Of a stretch of DNA of 46,669 nucleotides, positions 3,823 to 14,937 are shown piece after piece (the stretch's first letter is position 1; every line of letters starts with the position of its first letter). The stretch is from NCBI GenBank assembly GCA_947629345.1, contig CANRDK010000001.1:1-46669 (forward strand). Direction: 5' to 3'. A program made the position numbers and the translations under genes. Below the pieces are notes generated by a model. The model did not search any database, was not told where the DNA came from, and saw only the letters and a list, made by a program, of their open reading frames with translations. This stretch comes from an uncultured Clostridia bacterium. Its GTDB lineage: Bacteria > Bacillota > Clostridia > Christensenellales > Borkfalkiaceae.

Positions 3823-4827
3823 CTATATGATATACAAATTTTGCGAAAAAAGCAAGTCGTTTTGCAGGTAGATATGCATTTGCCCCGCAACTTCTCCCTT
3901 TTCCGTGGGAAGAGGGTCAAAAAGATCGCTGTCGAAGCGCAAACTCCTCAGCTCCGTCTTTTTGAGCGGATAGCTGAAACTGCACTTGATCTCAAAATTT
4001 TCCCAAGGCGTGCCGCTGTCGCAGAGTTTATAGATTTGGAATTCCGAAAAACAGCCGTCGAGGAGCTCCGCTGTCCGCTCGTACATTTCGGGACAATTTA
4101 AAACGACTGATACGAGCGACATGCCCCCTCTCTCCGCACAGGTCACGAGGCACCGTCCCGCCGCAGTCGTAAATCCCGTCTTGACCCCGATCGCCCCGTC
4201 ATAGTTAAAGAGCATTTTATTCTTATTCTGCCAGTTGCGCGGCTCATAGTATTTGCAGGAGACGATCTCACGGAAGGTCTCATTCTCCATCGCATAGGCG
4301 GAGATCAGGGCAAGGTCGCGGGCAGTCGTATGATGGCGGCTGTCGGGAAGACCGTGCGGGTTGACGAAATAGCTCCCCTCTGCCCCGAGGAGGGCTGCTT
4401 TTTCGTTCATTTTCTCCGAAAAGGCCTCAATGCTCCCGCTGTGATGCAGGGCGAGTGTCACGGCGCAGTCGTTTCCCGAGCGCAGCATCAGCCCGTAGAG
4501 CAGTTCTCTCACGGTGTATTCCTCTCCTGCGCGGAGGTAGACGCTCGAGCCCTCCACGCCCTCTGCGGCCTTGGGGATCTTCACCGTCTCATCGATCTTG
4601 CAGTCGTCGAGAATGAGGATCGCCGTCAGGACTTTTGTGGTGCTCGCCATGGGCAGCCTTGCATGCGCATCCTTCTCGTGCAGAATGCGGCGGGAGGAGA
4701 TCTCCACAACGCACTCTCCCCTCGCCTCCCCTGCGGCGGAACCCGAAAGGGCCTCCCTTCCGCCAAAGAGGAAAGAAAACAGGGCAATGACGGCAAGAAA
4801 CAGCCCCAGATACTCAGTTCGCTTCAT
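3823..4827 (-). CDS. D-alanyl-D-alanine carboxypeptidase (S11, DacB/DacF-like)
   Basis: SxxK motif (ASTTKVLT) and SGN motif (LRSGND). Start taken at ATG 4827 (MKRTEYLG..., signal-like); the ORF track begins at a TTG at 4854. Confidence 0.85.
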   Translation of the reverse strand: MKRTEYLGLFLAVIALFSFLFGGREALSGSAAGEARGECVVEISSRRILHEKDAHARLPMASTTKVLTAILILDDCKIDETVKIPKAAEGVEGSSVYLRAGEEYTVRELLYGLMLRSGNDCAVTLALHHSGSIEAFSEKMNEKAALLGAEGSYFVNPHGLPDSRHHTTARDLALISAYAMENETFREIVSCKYYEPRNWQNKNKMLFNYDGAIGVKTGFTTAAGRCLVTCAERGGMSLVSVVLNCPEMYERTAELLDGCFSEFQIYKLCDSGTPWENFEIKCSFSYPLKKTELRSLRFDSDLFDPLPTEKGEVAGQMHIYLQNDLLFSQNLYII

Positions 4828-8105: not shown

Positions 8106-9434
8106 TCACTTTTTCAAATATGCGGGGATGACGTCATACTGCACCAGATCTTCATACGTCTGAGGTCTTACGATGTACTGCGCTTTCCCCTCTTTCACGA
8201 GCACAGCGGGCGGAATGAGGTTGCGGTTGTAGTTGCTCGCCATGGAGTAGTTGTATGCCCCCGTCGAGAGCACGGCGACGAGGTCCCCCGTCTCAGCCTT
8301 GGGCAGATTCATGTTGATGCCGATGAGGTCGCCGCTTTCGCAGCATTTCCCCGCAAGAGAGATGAGTTCGGTGGGCCTTTCCGCCGCTCTGTTTGCAAGA
8401 ACGGCCGTGTACTTCGACTGGTAGAGGCAATAGCGGGGATTGTCGAACATGCCGCCGTCGATCGCAACATATTTCCTGAGGCCGGGGATATCCTTGATCG
8501 CGCCGACCGTGTAGAGCGTGATGCCCGCTTCGCCCACGATGGAGCGGCCGGGTTCGATGAGGATGCGGGGAAGCGCAAGCGCATACTTCTTGCACTGCTC
8601 TTTGACGGAGGAGATGAGCGCGGAGAGATATTCCCTGTACCCTCCCGAAGGGATCTTGCTGTCCTCATCGGTGTACCAGATGCCGAATCCACCGCCCAAA
8701 TTGACGGATTCGGGCTCAAAACCGTATTTTTTCTTGATTTCGGCGGCAAATTCCATGATTTTTTGGACTGCGATCACAAAGGACTGCTTCTCAAAGATCT
8801 GCGATCCGATATGGGAATGGTACCCGAGGAGACGGAGATGCTTCTTTTTGAGGAGATAGGCGACCATCTCCTCTGCAGTGCCGTTGTGGACGGAGAAGCC
8901 GAATTTGCTGTCTGGCGTCGCCGTCTGCACATAGGCGTGCGTATGCGCCTCCACCCCGGGGTTGATGCGGAGGAGTACATTCTGCACCATGCCCCGCTTT
9001 TCCGCCTCGGCGTCGAGAAGGTCCGCTTCCGTTGCAGAATCCACAACAAAACAGCCGATCTTGCAGTCCAAGGCATAGCGGATCTCGCTCGGCAGCTTGT
9101 TATTGCCATGAAAATAGATCTTTTCGGCGGGGAATCCCGCTTTCATCGCCGTAAAGAGCTCCCCGCCCGAAACGACGTCCGCCCCGAGCCCCTCCGAATC
9201 GGCAATGACATACATTGCTTCACAGGAAAAGGCCTTGGAGGCATAGAGCACGAGCCCGTTTCCGCCGTATTCTTCGGCGATCGTATCGCGATAGACGCGC
9301 ATCATGGAGCGGATATAGGCCTCATCGAACACATAGAGCGGCGTCCCGAAATTTTTTGCAAGTTCTACGCAGTCTGCCCCGCCGATCTCGAGATGGCCCT
9401 GTTTGTTTACCTTTAAAGTTTCTCTTTCGTTCAT
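8106..9434 (-). CDS. lysA: diaminopimelate decarboxylase
   Basis: 442 aa, PLP-dependent group IV decarboxylase (YASKAF, HSHIGSQI, GGGFGI, CESGD motifs). Confidence 0.95.
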   Translation of the reverse strand: MNERETLKVNKQGHLEIGGADCVELAKNFGTPLYVFDEAYIRSMMRVYRDTIAEEYGGNGLVLYASKAFSCEAMYVIADSEGLGADVVSGGELFTAMKAGFPAEKIYFHGNNKLPSEIRYALDCKIGCFVVDSATEADLLDAEAEKRGMVQNVLLRINPGVEAHTHAYVQTATPDSKFGFSVHNGTAEEMVAYLLKKKHLRLLGYHSHIGSQIFEKQSFVIAVQKIMEFAAEIKKKYGFEPESVNLGGGFGIWYTDEDSKIPSGGYREYLSALISSVKEQCKKYALALPRILIEPGRSIVGEAGITLYTVGAIKDIPGLRKYVAIDGGMFDNPRYCLYQSKYTAVLANRAAERPTELISLAGKCCESGDLIGINMNLPKAETGDLVAVLSTGAYNYSMASNYNRNLIPPAVLVKEGKAQYIVRPQTYEDLVQYDVIPAYLKK

Positions 9435-9519: not shown

Positions 9520-9545
9520 TGACATAGTACTATGCAAAACCGTCA
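9512..9545. repeat. nested-palindrome element, copy 1 (intergenic, abutting the DD-carboxypeptidase stop codon)
   Basis: ATTATGCCTGACATAGTACTATGCAAAACCGTCA. Perfect 12-bp palindrome CATAGTACTATG at 9523-9534. Confidence 0.9.
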
Positions 9546-10703
9546 ATTCCAATTTTTCGCCGTCTCTTTGAAGGCATCCCACCAGCTATACGCAGGCGCA
9601 TCCTCCATGGAAACGAGCTTGACGCGGCCGATCTCCACGCCGTCGCGGTACAACACCGCCTCTCCCGCTTCATCCCCCTTCATGACGGGAGCCTTTAATC
9701 CGTGAAGGGAAATTTCCACATTGAGGTCCTTGCTCTCCCCCTTCTTTCCGAATGCGGAAAGGGACCTCTCGGCACACACCCCGATCTCCTTTACCTTGCT
9801 TCCGCTCACGGAAGATCTGTTTTCGATCTGTTCCCCCGCTTTCAAAACAATATGATTTTCGTAGCCGCCGAACGCTTCATCAAACAGTGAGGAGACGATC
9901 GCATTTCTGCTCTTGGAATTCTCCGCGCCGATGACGACGCTGATGATCCGCATTTCTCCCCGCTTCGCCGTTGCGGCAAGGCAGGAACCCGCCTCGTTCG
10001 TGAATCCCGTCTTTCCGCCGTCACAGCCCTGATAGAAGCGTATCAGTTTGTTTGTGTTGGTCATCTGCGTCGTCCTGCCGTCGGGATGCTGAAAATCTTC
10101 CATCCAAACCTTGGTGAGCTCAAAGTATTTTTCATGCTTTAAAAGTTCCTTGAGCATGACGGCGACATCCTTCGCGCAGGAATATTGCGGTTCCTTGGGG
10201 AGGCCTGTACAGTTTGCGAACAGGGTGTTTTCTGCGCCGAGTTCCCTTGCGCGGGCATTCATTTTATCGATAAAGGCGCTTTCGCTCCCCGCGACCCGCT
10301 CTGCGATGGCCACGCAGGAGTCGTTTGCCGAGCAAACTGCGATGGATTTGATGAGCTGTTCCGCAGGATAGCTGAGCCCCGCGTCCAAAAAGACCTGCGA
10401 TCCCCCCATTCCCGCGGCATTTTCGCTCACGGTGATCATCTCGTCGTAGGCAAGTTCCCCGCTCTCCACCGCCTCAAAGGATAGAAGCAGGGTCATGATC
10501 TTACACATGCTCGCGATCGGCAGCCGCTTTGTCTCCTCCATGGCGTAAATTTCGGTGCCCGTTTCATAGTCGCAGGAATATGCCGCCTTGCATCTCGGCG
10601 CCGTCTCAAGCGCAGAAACCTGCACACTGTTTCCCATCATCAATGTTGCCGCAAGCAGAGCGGCCGTACAGATCAATTTTTTCATATCCTCAGTTTGTAA
10701 CAT
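9543..10703 (-). CDS. D-alanyl-D-alanine carboxypeptidase (S11, PBP5 type with C-terminal domain)
   Basis: 386 aa. SxxK (ASMCKIMT) and SxN (CSANDS) motifs. Signal peptide from MKKLICTAALLAAT, so an alternative start at 10685 is possible. Confidence 0.85.
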   Translation of the reverse strand: MLQTEDMKKLICTAALLAATLMMGNSVQVSALETAPRCKAAYSCDYETGTEIYAMEETKRLPIASMCKIMTLLLSFEAVESGELAYDEMITVSENAAGMGGSQVFLDAGLSYPAEQLIKSIAVCSANDSCVAIAERVAGSESAFIDKMNARARELGAENTLFANCTGLPKEPQYSCAKDVAVMLKELLKHEKYFELTKVWMEDFQHPDGRTTQMTNTNKLIRFYQGCDGGKTGFTNEAGSCLAATAKRGEMRIISVVIGAENSKSRNAIVSSLFDEAFGGYENHIVLKAGEQIENRSSVSGSKVKEIGVCAERSLSAFGKKGESKDLNVEISLHGLKAPVMKGDEAGEAVLYRDGVEIGRVKLVSMEDAPAYSWWDAFKETAKNWN

Positions 10704-10719
10704 GCTACAAAAAATACTC

Positions 10720-11316
10720 TTACAAAATTTTACCTATCGGGTGAAAGAGTGCAAGCAGCAAGATCATCTCCGCAAGATAGATAAAGGCGATCATGACGAG
10801 AATGGTGAGAAAGTCCCGCAGAAGATCCCAAAAATCGGACGGGGTGAAACAGAAACGGAATGCCCGTCCGAAGGTGAGCGTTGCAGTTATGACAAGGAGC
10901 GCGTCGGTGAGTAGATGGTTCGGAATGTAAATGATGATGGAAACCATCGCGCCCGAGATTCCGTAATGGTCAAAAAACACATACAGACTTCCCCCAAACG
11001 TAAAGGCGCGGAAGATGAGCACGGCGATCGGGAGCAGGAGCGCCACGGGATGAATGCTCCCCACAAGGATCAGTGCGGCGAGCAGAGCGCATCCCCCCGC
11101 CCGCTGTAAAAATATCAAAAAGACGTTGGTATCGGAGAAACAGATCTCCGTAAGATAGCTGTCGCAGATGGATAAATGGTATTCATAGACGGCGGGACTG
11201 TCGAGAAAGCACATGCCGAGGATCGTGAATGTGAGCACGAGCACGGCGAGGAAGATCAATGTCTTTTTCCGTTCCCACGCACGGGAAAAGAAACTTTGCA
11301 TAAAAAACAGGTCCAT
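10720..11316 (-). CDS. spoIIM: stage II sporulation protein M-like integral membrane protein
   Basis: 198 aa with about 5 hydrophobic segments and SpoIIM-like size and topology. Assignment is from memory of the family and the sporulation context. Confidence 0.5.
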   Translation of the reverse strand: MDLFFMQSFFSRAWERKKTLIFLAVLVLTFTILGMCFLDSPAVYEYHLSICDSYLTEICFSDTNVFLIFLQRAGGCALLAALILVGSIHPVALLLPIAVLIFRAFTFGGSLYVFFDHYGISGAMVSIIIYIPNHLLTDALLVITATLTFGRAFRFCFTPSDFWDLLRDFLTILVMIAFIYLAEMILLLALFHPIGKIL

Positions 11317-11353
11317 ATCCTATGATATGAACCGTGTTTCGATAGAATTCTCC

Positions 11354-11415
11354 TCAAGTTTTCAGCATATTCTTCCGATGCCGTATCCCCTCGTCGAGTC
11401 GTTCAGGAAGACATG
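11354..11415. repeat. decayed duplicate of the spoIVB 3' end (direct repeat A flanking the TA cassette)
   Basis: 56 of 62 hand-aligned positions are identical to 12169-12234, plus one 4-nt indel. The minus strand would read HVFLNDSTRGYGIGRIC*, against native THVFLNDPTRGYGIGIENMLKN*. Confidence 0.85.
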
Positions 11416-11424
11416 AGAAAAGTA

Positions 11425-11751
11425 TTAAGTTTTAATACTCCGCAGGACGCGCTTGTAGTCGCGCTTTGCGTTGAACGCCGCTTTCACATGGACGGTATCG
11501 CTTCCCGCTTCAAACGTGTAGAAAATCAAATACTCTTTATGTACGAGAAAACGGTACCCTTGGCAGACAAGATTTCTGTCATCGGGAATCGCCCCTGCCT
11601 GCGGGAAATCGGCAAGGCGGGCCACTTCCGCCCTCAATTCTGCGACGAATTTCAAAGCGGTCTCGGCGTCCTTCGATACATCGAGAATATCCAGCGCGAT
11701 CTTCTTAAGATCCGCGATCGCGGTCTCTGTCATCAGTACTTTGCAGCGCAT
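11425..11751 (-). CDS. type II toxin, ParE/RelE superfamily
   Basis: 108 aa. ...AIADLKKIALDI... and GYRFLVHKEYLIFYTFE... are typical of the ParE/RelE fold. Starts 3 nt after the antitoxin stop. Confidence 0.8.
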   Translation of the reverse strand: MRCKVLMTETAIADLKKIALDILDVSKDAETALKFVAELRAEVARLADFPQAGAIPDDRNLVCQGYRFLVHKEYLIFYTFEAGSDTVHVKAAFNAKRDYKRVLRSIKT

Positions 11752-11754
11752 AGT

Positions 11755-12042
11755 TTACTCCGAGAGCGTCTTGACGATCTCATCGAACGCTGCGTCGATC
11801 GGCTTCACCCTGCCGAGCATCACGTCATCCTCCGACTGCGCCAGATGGGCATAGAGTTCAAGCCGCTCCTTCATTTCTTCCAGCGCAGCCTGTTGCGCAA
11901 GGTAGTCCTCATGGCTCATGAGAACGGTATCCTCCCTCCCGTTGACGGTGATCGCAACGGGATTCTGCCGCGTCAGAGCAGAGATCTGCCCGTAGTTGGT
12001 GCGAAGATCTTTGGATGGACGAATGGAAATTCCGACAGCCAT
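11755..12042 (-). CDS. type II antitoxin, Phd/YefM family
   Basis: ORF trimmed to ATG 12042, which follows GGGAGG. ...LRTNYGQISALTRQNPVAITVNGREDTVLMSHEDY... is the Phd/YefM N-terminal fold. Confidence 0.8.
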   Translation of the reverse strand: MAVGISIRPSKDLRTNYGQISALTRQNPVAITVNGREDTVLMSHEDYLAQQAALEEMKERLELYAHLAQSEDDVMLGRVKPIDAAFDEIVKTLSE

Positions 12043-12069
12043 CACATTACCTCCCTGTTCAGTAGTCAT

Positions 12070-12098
12070 ATTGTATCATAATTTGTCTACAATGTCAA
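12070..12098 (-). promoter_or_regulatory. sigma-A-type promoter of the TA operon with an internal inverted repeat (possible operator)
   Basis: Minus strand: TTGACA, 17-nt spacer, TACAAT. ATTGTA directly after the -35 is the inverted repeat of the -10 TACAAT. Confidence 0.55.
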
Positions 12099-12138
12099 TA
12101 AAATTCTATGTAATTTCCAATAAAAAGTTGTATTTGAT

Positions 12139-12164
12139 AAGTCCACGGGCATTCCCGTGGACTT
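12139..12164 (-). terminator. 11-bp perfect hairpin just downstream of the spoIVB stop codon
   Basis: AAGTCCACGGG-CATT-CCCGTGGACTT. The T-run on the minus strand is displaced by about 12 nt, so terminator function is uncertain. Confidence 0.4.
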
Positions 12165-12168
12165 ATAC

Positions 12169-12234
12169 TCAGTTTTTCAGCATATTCTCAATTCCTATGC
12201 CGTATCCCCTCGTCGGATCGTTCAGGAATACATG
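12169..12234. repeat. functional spoIVB 3' end (direct repeat B flanking the TA cassette)
   Basis: Partner of 11354-11415. See the finding on the TA cassette. Confidence 0.85.
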
Positions 12235-13179
12235 GGTGACTGCGCCGATCAGTTTTCCGTTCTGAACGATGGGACTGCCGCTCATGCCCTGAACGATGCC
12301 GCCCGTCTCCTCGATGAGCCGTTCATCCGTCACTTTGATGACAAAATTCTTGTTCTCCCTGTTGTCCGCATCTACCTTTGCGATGCAGATCTCATATTCT
12401 TGGGGGCAGATCCCGTCGATCGTGGAATAGATCACGGCTTTGCCGATGGTTGCCTCGGAAATGGGAGCGATCTCCACCGTCTCGCAGCGGGAAAAGTCAT
12501 AATTCCTGTCGAATGTTCCATACAGGCCCGTGTCGCACACGGTTTCAGCCTTGGCAATGTTCTTGTCGTTCAGAAAGAGCCCTCTGAGCTCCCCCGCCTT
12601 GCCGCGCTTGCCCTTGTTGACGCCGATCACACTGCAGAGATACACTTTCGGGTCCGAAATGTCAAGCGTCTGATTGTTCTCATCGCACACGGCATGCCCC
12701 AAAGAGCCGAATCTGAGCGTGTTTTTGTTGATAAACGTCACGGTGCCGATCCCCGTCAAGGTGTCGCGGATGAGCACACCGATCTTATATTTTCCGTTTT
12801 TCTTGTCCTTGACGGGCACAATGCCGATTTCGGCTGTTTCCCCGTCCCGCTTGACTGTAAATTTTACCTCTTTTCCCCCGCTCTTCTCGAGGGTGCGGTT
12901 CATGTCTGCGATCGTCTTGATTTGGATCCCGTCTGCGGCGCAGATGAGGTCCCCGACCTTGAGCCCGACTTCCTCGGCAGGACGGTGAATGCCGTCCTCC
13001 GCGTTTACCTCGCTCAGCCCGATGATCTCGGCGCCTCCCGCAGACAGCGAGAAACCGGCCGTCATTCCTCCTAAATAATATTCGTCAGAAGCGGCGTTTG
13101 CCCTAAGTCCCGTACCGCAGCAGACCGCAACGGTCAGAAAGATGGCGAAGGCCGCGAAAAAAAATTTCAGCTTACGCAT
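12169..13179 (-). CDS. spoIVB: SpoIVB peptidase (S55), stage IV sporulation signalling protease
   Basis: 336 aa. PDZ region (GLKVGDLICAADGIQIKT) and serine protease core (GTVTFINKNTLRFGSLGHAV, MSGSPIVQNGKLIGAVTHVF). Confidence 0.93.
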   Translation of the reverse strand: MRKLKFFFAAFAIFLTVAVCCGTGLRANAASDEYYLGGMTAGFSLSAGGAEIIGLSEVNAEDGIHRPAEEVGLKVGDLICAADGIQIKTIADMNRTLEKSGGKEVKFTVKRDGETAEIGIVPVKDKKNGKYKIGVLIRDTLTGIGTVTFINKNTLRFGSLGHAVCDENNQTLDISDPKVYLCSVIGVNKGKRGKAGELRGLFLNDKNIAKAETVCDTGLYGTFDRNYDFSRCETVEIAPISEATIGKAVIYSTIDGICPQEYEICIAKVDADNRENKNFVIKVTDERLIEETGGIVQGMSGSPIVQNGKLIGAVTHVFLNDPTRGYGIGIENMLKN

Positions 13180-13245: not shown

Positions 13246-14937
13246 TTACAGGGATTTTTTGTAACTTTCAGCCTCGCCGATGAGTTCTCTCGCGTGCATC
13301 AGAGCGATCTCTCCCGTGTCACCGCCGATGAGCCGTGCGATCTCGCCGAGCCGCGCCTCCCCGTCCAGCGGATGGATATGCGTACACGTCCTGCCGCCAT
13401 CCTCTGTCTTTTCGATGAGAAAGTTCCGATCCGCGCAGGCGGCGATCCGAGCAAGGTGGGACACGGCAATAATTTGTGTATTTTTTGAGATCTTGCAGAA
13501 CTTTTCTCCGACGACTTTGGCCGTTTTCCCGCCGATCCCCGCGTCGATCTCATCAAAAATGTACGTTCCGATGCTACTCACATCGGAGAGCTGTGCCTTG
13601 ACGGCGAGCATGAATCTCGACATTTCGCCGCCGCTGATGATCTTGCCGAGCTCTTTCAACGGTTCCCCCTTGTTTGCTGAGAAGAGGAATTTCACGCCGC
13701 CGAGCCCCTCGGCCGTCGCATGGCCGACGTCGTCGCGGGAATAGTCCGCAAACTCGATCTCGAACCTCGCAGAGCCGATATTGAGCGTCGAAAGTTCCCT
13801 CGTCACCCGTGCGCAGAAGCCCTCCGCGGCGGCCTTTCTCTCCCTTGTCAGCTGTTCGCACGCCGAGAAGAGTTTCTCATCCGCCCGATTGAGCTCCTCT
13901 GTGAGTTCCTCGTACCGTTCGGCGCTGTTTTCGAGAAGGGAACACTCCTCCTGCGCCTTTTTGAGATATTCGATCGCGCTCTGCACCGTCCCGCCATACT
14001 TCTTTTTGAGCGTTCTGAGCTCATCGAGGCGGTTTTCCACCCGTTCCGCTTCCCGCTCGTTCACGTCGAGCTCGTCGAGCGCGCTCTCGGCCTCTTCCCC
14101 CACATCCTCGAGTTCGGCGGCCGAATTTTCGAGCCGTTCGGCAAGATCGGCATATTCTTTCACATACTTTGCAATGGAGCGGAGCGCATGGGCGGCACTG
14201 CGGACCCCGTCGAGGCATCCGCCGTCGGAGAGCAAACATTCTTTCGCCTCCGCGAGGCCGTCCTTGATCTTTTCTGCATTGCGGAACTTCTCGCGGGACT
14301 GCAAAAGTTCCTCTTCCTCGCCCTCTTTAAGTTCTGCACGCTGAAGTTCATCGATCTGAAAGCGGAGAATGTCGAGGCGACGGCTCCGCTCTCCCTCATC
14401 CCCGCCGAGCGTTTTGAGATCGTTCAAAATGGCCTTGCGGGCAGAGAGCCCCGCCGCAACTTCCTCTTTGGCCCTGACAACGGGCTCCCCTGCGATCGTA
14501 TCGAGAAGGCGGAGCTGGTTGCTCTCCTTCAATAAAAAGAAATGCTCGCTCTGCCCGTGGACGTCCACAAGGAGCGAGGTGATACGCCTGACCATGGCGG
14601 CAGTCACGGAACATCCGTTGAGTTTCAATGTGCCTCTTCCGTCAGAAGTGAGTTTTCTTGAGATGACGACCGTATCCTCCGCCTCAATATCCATCTCCTG
14701 CAGGAGCGCAAAAACGGCGGGGTCCTCCGTGGAAAACTCTGCTTGTACAAGACATTCATTCTCCCCGTAGCGCACCATTCCCTTATCGGCCTTGGCGCCG
14801 AGGACAAAATCGATACACTCCAAAATGACAGATTTTCCTGCGCCCGTCTCCCCAGAAAGGACGTTGAGCCCCTTGGAAAATTCGAGATCTGCCCGCTCGA
14901 TGAGTGCAACATTGCGGATCAAAAGACTCTTCAGCAT
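13246..14937 (-). CDS. recN: DNA repair protein RecN
   Basis: 563 aa. SMC-like Walker A (GETGAGKS), long coiled coil, C-terminal signature (GGEMSRFMLA) and Walker B (FDEIDAGIGG). Confidence 0.95.
   Translation of the reverse strand: MLKSLLIRNVALIERADLEFSKGLNVLSGETGAGKSVILECIDFVLGAKADKGMVRYGENECLVQAEFSTEDPAVFALLQEMDIEAEDTVVISRKLTSDGRGTLKLNGCSVTAAMVRRITSLLVDVHGQSEHFFLLKESNQLRLLDTIAGEPVVRAKEEVAAGLSARKAILNDLKTLGGDEGERSRRLDILRFQIDELQRAELKEGEEEELLQSREKFRNAEKIKDGLAEAKECLLSDGGCLDGVRSAAHALRSIAKYVKEYADLAERLENSAAELEDVGEEAESALDELDVNEREAERVENRLDELRTLKKKYGGTVQSAIEYLKKAQEECSLLENSAERYEELTEELNRADEKLFSACEQLTRERKAAAEGFCARVTRELSTLNIGSARFEIEFADYSRDDVGHATAEGLGGVKFLFSANKGEPLKELGKIISGGEMSRFMLAVKAQLSDVSSIGTYIFDEIDAGIGGKTAKVVGEKFCKISKNTQIIAVSHLARIAACADRNFLIEKTEDGGRTCTHIHPLDGEARLGEIARLIGGDTGEIALMHARELIGEAESYKKSL

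Follow-up and report, generated by a model that had tools for sequence, protein, structure and literature searches.

A ParE/Phd toxin-antitoxin cassette beside an intact spoIVB gene, the likely relic of a site-specific mobile element

The duplicated spoIVB end and the operon between its copies

The spoIVB locus of an uncultured Clostridia bacterium raises the question of how a complete sporulation gene came to be followed by a second copy of its own 3′ end, with a toxin-antitoxin (TA) operon between the two. The window analysed here is the whole stretch of 46,669 nt in which this locus lies. Global alignment of positions 11354-11415 with the last 66 nt of spoIVB (12169-12234) gave 56 identities over 62 positions and one 4-nt gap, exactly the figures of an earlier note on this DNA, and a repeat search resolved the match into two ungapped halves of 43 nt at 91% identity (offset 819 nt) and 29 nt at 83% (offset 815 nt). 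The best local score of one flank against the other was 38, compared with 9.8 +/- 0.95 (maximum 14) for 100 dinucleotide shuffles; the duplication is real and far above chance. The features of the region are as follows.

10720..11316, minus strand: multi-pass membrane protein of 198 aa, encoded by the gene that natively follows spoIVB in this clade (gene order shared by about 30 loci), outside the element
11310..11333, minus strand: native spoIVB terminator, a GGTTCATATC/GATATGGACC stem with a T-run
11354..11415, minus strand: distal copy, the displaced native spoIVB 3′ end and putative attR B′ arm, with a 4-nt deletion causing a frameshift
11416..11437, minus strand: decayed right end (putative attR P arm), reading TATTAAAACTTAATACTTTTCT on the minus strand where the family consensus has TATAACTTATTGACATTTAC
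11425..11751, minus strand: ParE/RelE-superfamily toxin of 108 aa (PF05016, 8e-12), whose last codons and stop reach into the element end
11431..12116, minus strand: core ParE/Phd module, about 82% identical in DNA (blastn) to the L042 and L044 copies at another chromosomal site
11755..12042, minus strand: Phd/YefM antitoxin of 95 aa (PF02604, 7.6e-8)
12070..12098, minus strand: sigma-70-type promoter (TTGACA-17-TACAAT), carrying an extended TG and agreeing with the consensus at 11 of 12 positions
12137..12166, minus strand: hairpin after the spoIVB stop, a 13-bp perfect stem (12137-12149 / 12154-12166)
12169..12234, minus strand: proximal copy, the working spoIVB end (last 21 codons and TGA), delimited by alignment with the distal copy
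12169..13179, minus strand: spoIVB, intact, 336 aa, PDZ and S55 peptidase domains (PF05580, 2e-69; TIGR02860, 8.6e-90)

The window SpoIVB is 99% identical to that of L001 (related loci carry L numbers throughout). When translated in the spoIVB frame the distal copy reads HVFLNDSTRGYGIGRIC before a stop, shifted by the 4-nt deletion, and L001 retains those four nucleotides. The copy runs directly into the native intergenic sequence and the native terminator as at empty sites, the same terminator hairpin also being found 3′ of spoIVB in empty-site relatives. This hairpin overlaps the annotated ATG of the membrane protein gene, whose true start may be the second Met. The gene had been labelled spoIIM, a name that we do not retain: neither the 198-aa protein nor three orthologues matched any Pfam or NCBIfam model, SpoIIM (PF01944) included, even at E <= 10. 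Gene order in the clade is conserved as recN-spoIVB-membrane protein-dacB-lysA, and the remark of the earlier note on spo0A has no bearing on the interpretation.

The hairpin directly after the spoIVB stop is perfect, as had been described, with a measured stem of 13 bp rather than 11 bp. As RNA it folds with -23 kcal/mol (z = -4.6), its stem covaries in L005, L026 and L031, and a similar hairpin lies 3′ of the native spoIVB end in L048. No such hairpin occurs at empty sites, and a search of all fetched loci for the hairpin and the stop-to-promoter spacer found them only in the cassettes and after the L048 native 3′ end, and in no full element. The hairpin is probably a substitute terminator and insulator of spoIVB; the native terminator now lies 3′ of the distal copy, so the TA transcript probably ends at this terminator.

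The promoter and both TA genes named in the earlier note were all recovered between the repeats, with domain scores above gathering thresholds: 32.5 bits for PF02604 (cut-off 29.8) and 25.3 for TIGR01552 (cut-off 20.8) in Phd, and 46 bits for PF05016 (cut-off 23) in ParE. Antitoxin and toxin are co-oriented in that order, separated by 3 nt and preceded by their own promoter, a layout kept in 7 loci; the promoter hexamers are nearly invariant across all 7 ParE/Phd cassettes, and ParE relatives share 75-94% identity. By its domains above curated thresholds and its operon layout the pair is a predicted type II TA system. The most likely Phd start, as judged from the cassette alignment and the promoter position, is the conserved ATG at 12042 with the ribosome-binding site GGGAGG; an alternative ATG at 12069 abuts the -10 box. 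ParE scored below the RelE/StbE NCBIfam cut-off and a PDB sequence search matched it to no solved structure, so its target may be either gyrase or ribosome-bound mRNA. A PADLOC scan and the PDB sequence search returned nothing for ParE, Phd or HipA, the toxin of a second pair described below. Likewise, the 696-nt TA module had no blastn match among PLSDB plasmids or INPHARED phages, and a ParE scan of JGI metagenomes found no relative. Today the operon is a self-contained and constitutively promoted pair of predicted type II. It probably acts to maintain itself, and incoming elements that carry the same TA could be counteracted by it (anti-addiction).

The spoIVB site and its elements in related genomes

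The site was compared across 38 related genomes, the relatives all being metagenome-assembled genomes (MAGs). Empty sites with a single copy of the spoIVB end, which the earlier note had predicted for relatives lacking the cassette, are present in about 20 of them, including the closest cassette-free one, L002 (SpoIVB 96%). Cassette-free relatives thus carry one copy, and we encountered neither both copies without the TA pair nor a repeat of an unrelated intergenic type. The ParE/Phd pair occupies the site in the window, L001, L005, L026 and L031, and a HipB/HipA pair (PF01381; PF07804 and PF13657) is inserted at the same nucleotide in L004, L007, L009 and L010. Several cassettes are decaying: L006 and L023 are HipBA cassettes in further decay, and the toxin end of L005 has decayed. 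At the five ParE/Phd sites and at the HipBA sites of L004, L007, L009 and L010, the toxin gene is followed by a repeat of the final 26-64 nt of spoIVB; the exception is L031, where the repeat was not detected by blastn and inspection by eye shows no more than a heavily decayed trace. A collapsed repeat or a chimeric join of strain variants in a MAG could in principle mimic such a structure, and all the relatives are MAGs; we nevertheless give an assembly artefact practically no weight, because at least nine independent assemblies from different samples share this architecture and have lineage-specific sequence in the two copies, and the window copies differ by 6 substitutions and an indel with intact genes between them.

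A recombinase-bearing parent element, considered in the earlier note, which read the repeat as an integration footprint and the cassette as a possible minimal remnant, was found at exactly this site as a family carrying two tandem large-serine-recombinase genes (LSR1 and LSR2, with Resolvase, Recombinase and Zn_ribbon_recom domains). In L125/L050, L127, L128, L130, L132 and L048 the order is LSR1-LSR2, TATAACTTATTGACAnnnnnnnnnGT, the last codons of spoIVB, dacB and lysA. The elements insert in the ...GAVTHVF... motif of spoIVB, within the His-Val codons (CAYGT) about 62 nt before the stop, the GT being the predicted crossover; their conserved right end has the sequence TATAACTTATTGACA.... Cargo next to the right ends includes ParE/Phd and HipBA modules: L050 reads LSR1-LSR2-HipBA-right end, and one element in L129 carries LSR1-LSR2-Phd (84%)-ParE (75%), further cargo, HipBA and a right end, with two right ends flanking cargo in a tandem structure. 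The expectation that the same TA pair would occur elsewhere was thereby borne out, both within this full element and at the second chromosomal site of L042 and L044.

On the left side, six junctions (L030, L136, L137, L138, L139/L140 and L141) read CAYGT, 6 nt and TATAATAwGGAyACCGGCGAT. All six cut SpoIVB right after ...GAVTHV, where the reading frame either stops or runs on for 12-20 unrelated residues, so the gene is not restored by intact elements. Delivery of the proximal copy by the element on integration, one of the origins considered for it, is excluded for intact elements by these junctions. As intact elements truncate SpoIVB without supplying a replacement end, the intact proximal copy would be a later restoration, by a route that we can only infer.

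These junctions bear directly on the suggestion that the locus resembles a tRNA-targeting island. Under that explanation, a tyrosine-integrase-type island inserted into the spoIVB 3′ end with a replacement end in its attP, in the manner of islands that target tRNA and tmRNA genes, and later lost its integrase. The insert is indeed flanked by direct repeats of a gene 3′ end with the gene left intact, and the proximal tail of the HipBA cassettes, ATGATAAAAAATTGA, looks cassette-borne and unlike the native distal tail. However, every recombinase found at the site is a large serine recombinase, a tyrosine recombinase was seen in none of the loci, and the six left junctions put a stop or unrelated residues in place of the SpoIVB C-terminus, without homology to the native end. 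We therefore regard a tyrosine-integrase island as highly improbable and already largely refuted, and the replacement-end part of the earlier note does not hold. An integron-cassette reading was rejected along with it, as was a target-site duplication, for which no known mechanism yields 62 nt.

The parent elements are large, and at least one looks conjugative: L136 and L129/L048 belong to the same genome as separate contigs, and L136 runs into a gene for a VirB4/TraG-like ATPase. No single contig was seen to span a complete element from end to end, and a right end for L052 was likewise not recovered, the available contigs or flanks being too short. Among the fetched loci, the P and P′ motifs are confined to spoIVB junctions, apart from one internal copy in L129 and one match in L034, a bare 14-mer without junction context. 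Action of the recombinase pair on attP and the spoIVB attB is predicted from the junctions. Reconstruction of attP gives a sequence shaped like a promoter. An excised attP did not turn up: a metagenome pattern search for the joined attP (P arm, CAYGT, P′ arm) gave 4 matches, all of them ordinary TTGACA-17-TATAAT promoters with neither a recombinase nor SpoIVB nearby.

Origin and spread of the cassette

According to the earlier note, nothing apart from the hairpin, promoter and TA genes lies between the repeats, which overlooked a decayed element end at 11416-11437, overlapping the ParE stop codon. We aligned the P arms at the junction, taking the window and L001 together with 3 HipBA mini-cassettes and 6 elements that carry the recombinases. 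In the window the motif, AAAACTTAAT-AC-TTTTC, is short and decayed, while L001 has AAAACTTAATGCCCTTTTC and the elements have TATAACTTATTGACATTTAC; the HipBA cassettes keep the stretch AACATATTGACAATTTC, and L001 and L050 have 17 of 25 positions in common, counted by eye. The left edge of the distal copy, at CAYGT, is the same nucleotide as in six attL and six full-element attR junctions. With the right-end motif beside ParE and the junction at this position, the distal copy would therefore be the native 3′ end adjoining a relic attR, with its crossover GT (plus-strand AC) inferred at 11411-11412. The proximal copy, together with the bases immediately upstream, is a predicted intact attB, and the attL and attR junctions of occupied relatives place its predicted crossover GT at plus-strand AC 12230-12231. 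The 62-nt direct repeat therefore reads as an intact attB plus a relic attR.

Consistent with this, the ParE/Phd and HipBA cargo is common to cassettes and complete elements (L129, L050). Elsewhere in the 46.7 kb no large serine recombinase (tblastn), no P or P′ motif and no other element remnant was found; the insert consists of the TA pair, with no recombinase or transfer genes in cis, and is not a functional integrative (conjugative) element. Taking the 22-nt decayed motif and the positional identity of the junction as the evidence for descent, we consider it likely that the region is the relic of a mobile element that integrated site-specifically into spoIVB.

The ParE/Phd module might alternatively be an autonomous selfish cassette that made the 62-nt repeat on insertion, its link to serine recombinases being coincidental. 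In L042 and L044 the core module of promoter, Phd and ParE (12116..11431) does occupy an unrelated position, with a nucleoside-kinase-like gene on one side, spoVAD on the other and no recombinase nearby, and in L005 and L026 both repeat copies are host-type. Yet the second site has no duplicated end of a neighbouring gene, a different TA pair (HipBA) has the same duplication with the same left edge, that edge matches the attL and attR junctions of the elements to the nucleotide, a P-arm remnant adjoins the toxin, and the required target duplication has no known mechanism. Such an autonomous cassette is quite improbable. The core module is also 77% identical by blastn to the full-element copy in L129, over 12098..11446.

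For the favoured origin from an element, the surviving right-hand junction would comprise ParE/Phd fused to the decayed P arm, the native last 20 codons of spoIVB and the native terminator, while upstream a second copy of the last 21 codons, with a new terminator hairpin after it, would have completed spoIVB again. A mini-cassette of spoIVB 3′ end, stop, hairpin, TA pair and P arm may have formed once from an integrated element. It would then have been retained because cells pay a price for losing the TA (addiction) and also for a disrupted spoIVB, and it would have passed as one unit into this site of other lineages. Transfer of the TA genes is suggested by synonymous-site identity between the window and L026, at 0.66-0.72 for the TA genes and 0.40-0.53 for flanking genes (the higher identity being limited to the core module, 11431..12116), by the empty site of L025, the sister of L026, and by site states that are patchy on a RecN+DacB tree. 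The route that we favour is accretion, in which an element would enter the restored attB, excise via the distal attR carrying the cassette, and in the next host depart via the proximal attR; ordinary homologous recombination would be an alternative route. No composite element with an internal attR-3′ end-hairpin-TA arrangement was seen, and that stretch is missing in L129, so accretion is unproven.

An element origin can also be combined with a different history, in which the cassette either was imported pre-formed on a chromosomal fragment or was formed in situ repeatedly. In the first variant the window lineage never hosted the element and received the cassette from a relative by ordinary or homology-facilitated illegitimate recombination; in the second, several lineages independently underwent a tandem duplication across attR and then lost the element by normal excision. 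The patchy states and a TA synonymous divergence below that of the flanks would suit such histories, as would the resemblance of the hairpin to the native spoIVB terminator of the L048 lineage and a gene-conversion-like variant common to the window and L001, which amounts to one shared site only. In L005 and L026 both the proximal and the distal copy have the lineage's own tail, which requires later gene conversion or formation in situ rather than plain import of a donor end. Against this, the right-hand homology arm is only about 50-62 nt, competence is not established for these uncultured Clostridia, and the junctions, on the left from stop to hairpin and on the right with TTTTCTCA in both the window and L026, seem to have a common ancestry, which speaks against a large number of separate origins in situ. 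We regard import or repeated formation in situ as possible, if somewhat doubtful.

Within the favoured element origin, a more elaborate joint reading would make the mini-cassettes, beyond dead relics, a distinct class of hitchhikers by accretion that serve at once as a repair patch for spoIVB and as an element-disarming TA copy, and would give the element a circle-only promoter. Cassettes would ride serine-recombinase elements at the restored attB and stay once the element leaves; a chromosomal copy of the element's TA would disarm addiction, allowing the host to shed a sporulation-abolishing element; and a TTGACA-17-TATAAT promoter would arise from the two element ends solely on their joining in the excised circle. 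Taken as a whole this reading is unlikely.

Comparison with known systems

SCCmec and other SCC elements carry the recombinase genes ccrA/ccrB and target rlmH, and recombinase-less pseudo-SCC cassettes occur in staphylococci and enterococci. As far as the accessible part of the source goes, the Enterococcus cassette chromosome offers a comparison case for SCC-type elements (PMC6222049). The present family resembles SCC in its pair of serine-family recombinase genes, its site-specific entry at the 3′ end of one conserved housekeeping gene, its recombinase-less cassettes bounded by att copies at the same site and its tandem arrays (L129). In contrast, the target here is spoIVB instead of rlmH and is truncated by intact elements, where SCC preserves its target; the repeat is 62 nt of coding sequence, where the SCC core is 15-18 bp; one cassette boundary is an intact attB rather than an attL; and at least one parent element looks conjugative.

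The CIMEs of the ICESt1/ICESt3 family of Streptococcus are cis-mobilisable remnants of integrative conjugative elements that lie between the attL and attR sites of a tyrosine integrase and move by accretion-mobilisation. Like them, the cassettes appear to be element remnants at an att site without recombination or transfer genes, for which pick-up by an adjoining complete element would be possible, and in L129 older cargo and a further right end come after an element. Unlike CIMEs, the system has serine-type recombinases and a repaired target gene as left boundary, and mobilisation is only proposed, the indirect indications being the tandem structure of L129 and the occurrence of cassettes at this one site in distant lineages. 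Compared with CIMEs and pseudo-SCC cassettes, the window cassette has no recombinase and a relic attR, its left boundary being an intact attB-like gene end without a P′ arm.

Elements in sporulation genes are represented by skin/sigK, SPbeta/spsM, gin/gerE, vfbin, vrin and yin, and in the available portions of these sources the named cases concern mother-cell-expressed genes that are rebuilt by excision in the terminally differentiated mother cell (PMC4191935, PMC5595907, PMC5025042, PMC10747680). The parent elements described here are similarly large-serine-recombinase elements within the coding sequence of a sporulation gene of endospore formers. Unlike the gene-intervening elements, spoIVB in the window is whole without any excision, and spoIVB of B. 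subtilis is expressed in the forespore. A literature search of partly accessible texts found no report of spoIVB as a mobile-element target.

A known chromosomal TA pair, ccdO157, is a case of an anti-addiction module. In the window, too, the TA pair would have arrived on a mobile element with its linked genes streamlined away, and its relatives are patchy and decaying (L005 toxin end, L006, L023). Chromosomal type II TA modules have been treated as mobile-element residues, in the part of the text available, by Belot et al. 2026 (PMC13617665). What sets the present locus apart from such residues is that parent element, exact junction and intermediates are readable from relatives, and that the relic coincides with repair of the target gene. 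The operon is like ParE/RelE-Phd/YefM systems in its two small co-oriented genes with the antitoxin first, a 3-nt gap and a strong upstream promoter, and departs from them in the toxin, which has no solved-structure match and lies below the RelE/StbE NCBIfam cut-off.

An odd 62-nt repeat thereby becomes a readable history, in which two-recombinase elements of gut Clostridia target one codon pair of spoIVB. The window would represent one outcome, with the gene repaired and only the TA module retained, and a natural illustration of how TA addiction, and possibly anti-addiction, shapes what outlasts the loss of an element. The att sites, paired recombinases and cassettes form a concrete testable system, and the att sites and recombinase pair may interest those cataloguing serine integrases. 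The other outcome is seen at occupied sites, which truncate SpoIVB, a protease needed in late sporulation signalling; sporulation in gut commensals may therefore be turned off by the elements. Both states of the site occur within one species, L141 being disrupted and L052 intact with the same SpoIVB sequence.

Genes and signals around the duplicated spoIVB end

The cassette lies on the minus strand of the window within the following gene order.

Genes around the spoIVB cassette
8106-9434, minus, lysA
9543-10703, minus, D-Ala-D-Ala carboxypeptidase
10720-11316, minus, 198-aa membrane protein
11425-11751, minus, ParE
11755-12042/12069, minus, Phd
12169-13179, minus, spoIVB
13246-14937, minus, recN

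The earlier note had described a duplication of the spoIVB 3′ end on either side of a toxin-antitoxin (TA) pair, and alignment of the proximal copy (the final 66 nt of the gene, 12169-12234) with the distal copy beyond ParE (11354-11415) bore this out, with 56 of 62 positions identical and one 4-nt gap. Local alignment of the flanks scored 38 at best, against 9.8 +/- 0.95 for dinucleotide shuffles, and the two ungapped halves of the repeat were also recovered by repeat search. The promoter TTGACA-17-TACAAT was likewise present at 12098..12070, and the hairpin after spoIVB, previously given as 11 bp, is a perfect 13 bp stem (12137-12166; -23 kcal/mol, z = -4.6). Translation of Phd most likely begins at 12042, where a GGGAGG ribosome-binding site precedes a start common to 7/7 aligned cassettes, because the alternative ATG, at 12069, directly adjoins the -10 box.

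The label spoIIM given earlier to the membrane-protein gene beside the cassette is not supported. A second hairpin with a T-run (GGTTCATATCATAGGATATGGACC TGTTTTTT; window 11310-11333, minus) is conserved 3′ of spoIVB in all relatives with an empty site and is evidently the native spoIVB terminator. As this hairpin and the initial ATG of the 198-aa open reading frame overlap, that gene probably starts at the second Met, at about 11301. A distant paralogue of the D-Ala-D-Ala carboxypeptidase (32% identical) lies about 5 kb away from it (3868-4659, minus), and relatives have a similar second copy about 5 kb past lysA.

Empty and occupied spoIVB sites in relatives

A SpoIVB-based scan produced 38 loci from related genomes (L-numbers denote fetched loci); most are from rabbit-gut MAGs that bear the label Clostridia or Christensenellaceae. 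Roughly 20 of these carried the empty site that the earlier note had proposed to look for, with the membrane-protein gene within ~40 nt of spoIVB and the 3′ end present once, among them L002, the nearest relative without the cassette. The ParE/Phd pair was found at the identical place in L001, L005, L026 and L031, and a different pair, HipB/HipA, occupies the site in L004, L007, L009 and L010. In all occupied loci except L031, the last 26-64 nt of spoIVB were repeated directly after the toxin (blastn) and native intergenic sequence adjoined the duplicated end; in L031 blastn gave no duplicate, and inspection by eye shows no more than a heavily decayed trace. The left edge of the duplicate is an identical CAYGT in ParE/Phd and HipBA cassettes. 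L006 is a HipBA cassette with an internal deletion, and L023 retains only HipB and the first HipA codons. Empty, ParE/Phd and HipBA states were interleaved in a RecN+DacB tree. The L005 ParE frame lacks its last few codons and reads directly into the distal spoIVB copy (L005:6730-6745); this cassette is starting to erode at the toxin end.

A large-serine-recombinase element at the same site

No recombinase or other element remnant was found in the window, and the proposal that the cassette is a remnant of a larger element gained its support from recombinase-bearing elements at the same spoIVB site. L050, reached by a HipA scan, encodes two large serine recombinases of 591 and 575 aa (LSR1-LSR2), each with Resolvase, Recombinase and zinc-ribbon domains, followed by HipBA and a junction, TATAACTTATTGACAGTTAC then TCACGT..., that leads into the last codons of spoIVB. 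Past this end come genes for a small membrane protein and a deoB-like phosphopentomutase, with dacB at a greater distance. A search with LSR1, the first recombinase, recovered the same type of arrangement in L127, L128, L130 and L132. The ParE/Phd pair itself was carried by L129, a single element in which LSR1-LSR2 are followed by Phd (84%) and ParE (75%), the DNA being 77% identical to window 12098..11446; past ParE come ~7 kb of cargo, HipBA and a piece of the LSR2 3′ end, after which a second right end meets the spoIVB 3′ end. Short ORFs (~105-120 aa) near element ends, one matching only the N-terminal Resolvase domain (PF00239; L030:6227-6589) and one judged resolvase-like by eye only (L128:13499-13820), may represent decayed recombinases or else accessory or directionality factors.

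Alignment of the right ends at the junction brought out a conserved arm, TATAACTTATTGACA + 9 nt + GT, which is retained in HipBA mini-cassettes as AACATATTGACAATTTC and is still recognisable, in decayed form, next to ParE in L001 and the window (11416-11437). Left ends were found through SpoIVB homologues without the normal C-terminus (6/240), which stop at ...GAVTHV or add 12-20 unrelated residues; their DNA and that of L030 share the junction CAYGT + 6 nt + TATAATAwGGAyACCGGCGAT. Both arm motifs were confined to spoIVB junctions among the fetched loci, barring the internal copy in L129 and a bare 14-mer match without junction context in L034. L136 and L129/L048 share a genome; so do L138 and L126. 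Comparison of attL with attR within one genome (L136 and L048) would place the exchange point at the GT opening the Val codon. Joining the two arms at this GT, TTGACA + 9 nt + GT with 6 nt + TATAAT (L136:10940-10990, L048:5575-5605; also L030, L137-L141, L125-L132), would create a perfect TTGACA-17-TATAAT promoter restricted to the excised circular form and directed into the left-end genes of the element.

An insertion cuts SpoIVB after GAVTHV, with loss of the conserved FxNDPTRGYG tail (L141, L136, L138, L139). Intact elements thus truncate the protein, contrary to the earlier reading that a new gene end is supplied in the manner of tRNA-targeting islands. L141 is the disrupted form of the exact SpoIVB sequence that is intact in L052. 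Both alleles coexist in public data, pointing to an on/off polymorphism of sporulation that elements drive in gut Clostridia. The L136 genome's element, at least, looks conjugative, as L136 runs on into a VirB4/TraG-like ATPase gene. Left-end cargo varies between elements (L139:2043-9419, L138:11339-20422): one set comprised radical-SAM/SPASM genes, a restriction-like DUF4365 protein and a KAP-NTPase matching the candidate defence family PDC-S49, and another an ImmA-like peptidase and a galactose-utilisation cluster (galT, galK, galE).

Proposed formation and spread of the cassettes

The distal copy in the window is contiguous with native intergenic sequence and the hairpin/T-run at 11333..11310, and, as a decayed element arm directly precedes it, it reads as the B′ half of a relic attR. 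spoIVB is made whole by the proximal copy, and a hairpin absent from empty sites comes next; because intact elements supply no such end, the intact gene must, on this comparison, be the product of a later event. L052 appears to be another repaired gene with an element remnant and a different deletion end point, with intact spoIVB, ~98 nt, the last ~140 nt of an LSR2 gene with its terminator, HipBA and more cargo (L052:3401-3596; its right end lies outside the fetched sequence).

We favour accretion-mobilisation both for the intact gene beside a relic and as the route of spread: an element would integrate into the restored attB, excise using the distal attR and, once in a new host, exit via the proximal attR. 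L129, with its two right ends, is consistent with this scheme, although it lacks the internal 3′ end and hairpin that the scheme predicts. L005 and L026 carry the host's own tail on both copies, a state that would need gene conversion or in-situ formation. Live alternatives to accretion-mobilisation are homologous or homology-facilitated recombination, and a tandem duplication across attR with normal excision thereafter. The stop-to-hairpin spacers of ParE cassettes look mutually homologous and the element-side junction TTTTCTCA is common to the window and the distant L026, suggesting a single origin followed by spread. HipBA cassettes of distant lineages share a proximal tail (ATGATAAAAAATTGA) and second hairpin, with native distal tails. 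Synonymous-site identity between the window and L026 was 0.66-0.72 in the TA genes and 0.40-0.53 in the flanks, values by which the TA genes would clearly be younger than the host divergence; L025, a sister genome of L026, has an empty site.

A general model has chromosomal TA modules arriving on mobile elements and outlasting them (PMC13617665), and it applies here too. Addiction would predict that the TA pair is kept, and a chromosomal copy could act as an anti-addiction module. The nearest analogues are SCC elements, which have ccrAB pairs and pseudo-cassettes lacking a recombinase, and the CIME remnants found for streptococcal ICEs. Serine-recombinase intervening elements of sporulation genes come close as well; the papers searched did not mention spoIVB as a target. 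The spoIVB system differs from these in its target gene, which intact elements break, in the 62-nt coding duplication, in having attB rather than attL as left boundary, and in its paired TA cargo.

L042 and L044 have the promoter-Phd-ParE core (12116..11431) as well, at ~82% identity; there it is flanked by a nucleoside-kinase-like gene and spoVAD, and the spoIVB-derived repeat is absent. L042 and L008 come from one genome, and the spoIVB site in L008 is empty. The ParE/Phd module thus seems also to move by itself. In L049, HipBA at 90% identity likewise has unrelated surroundings. Upstream of the second-site ParE/Phd copies, the spacer (L042:3430-3640, L044:3270-3640) is made up of several repeats of a GC-rich motif, GAGCTGTCACGC...GTGACTGAGGGG, and resembles an intergenic repeat of REP or MITE type.
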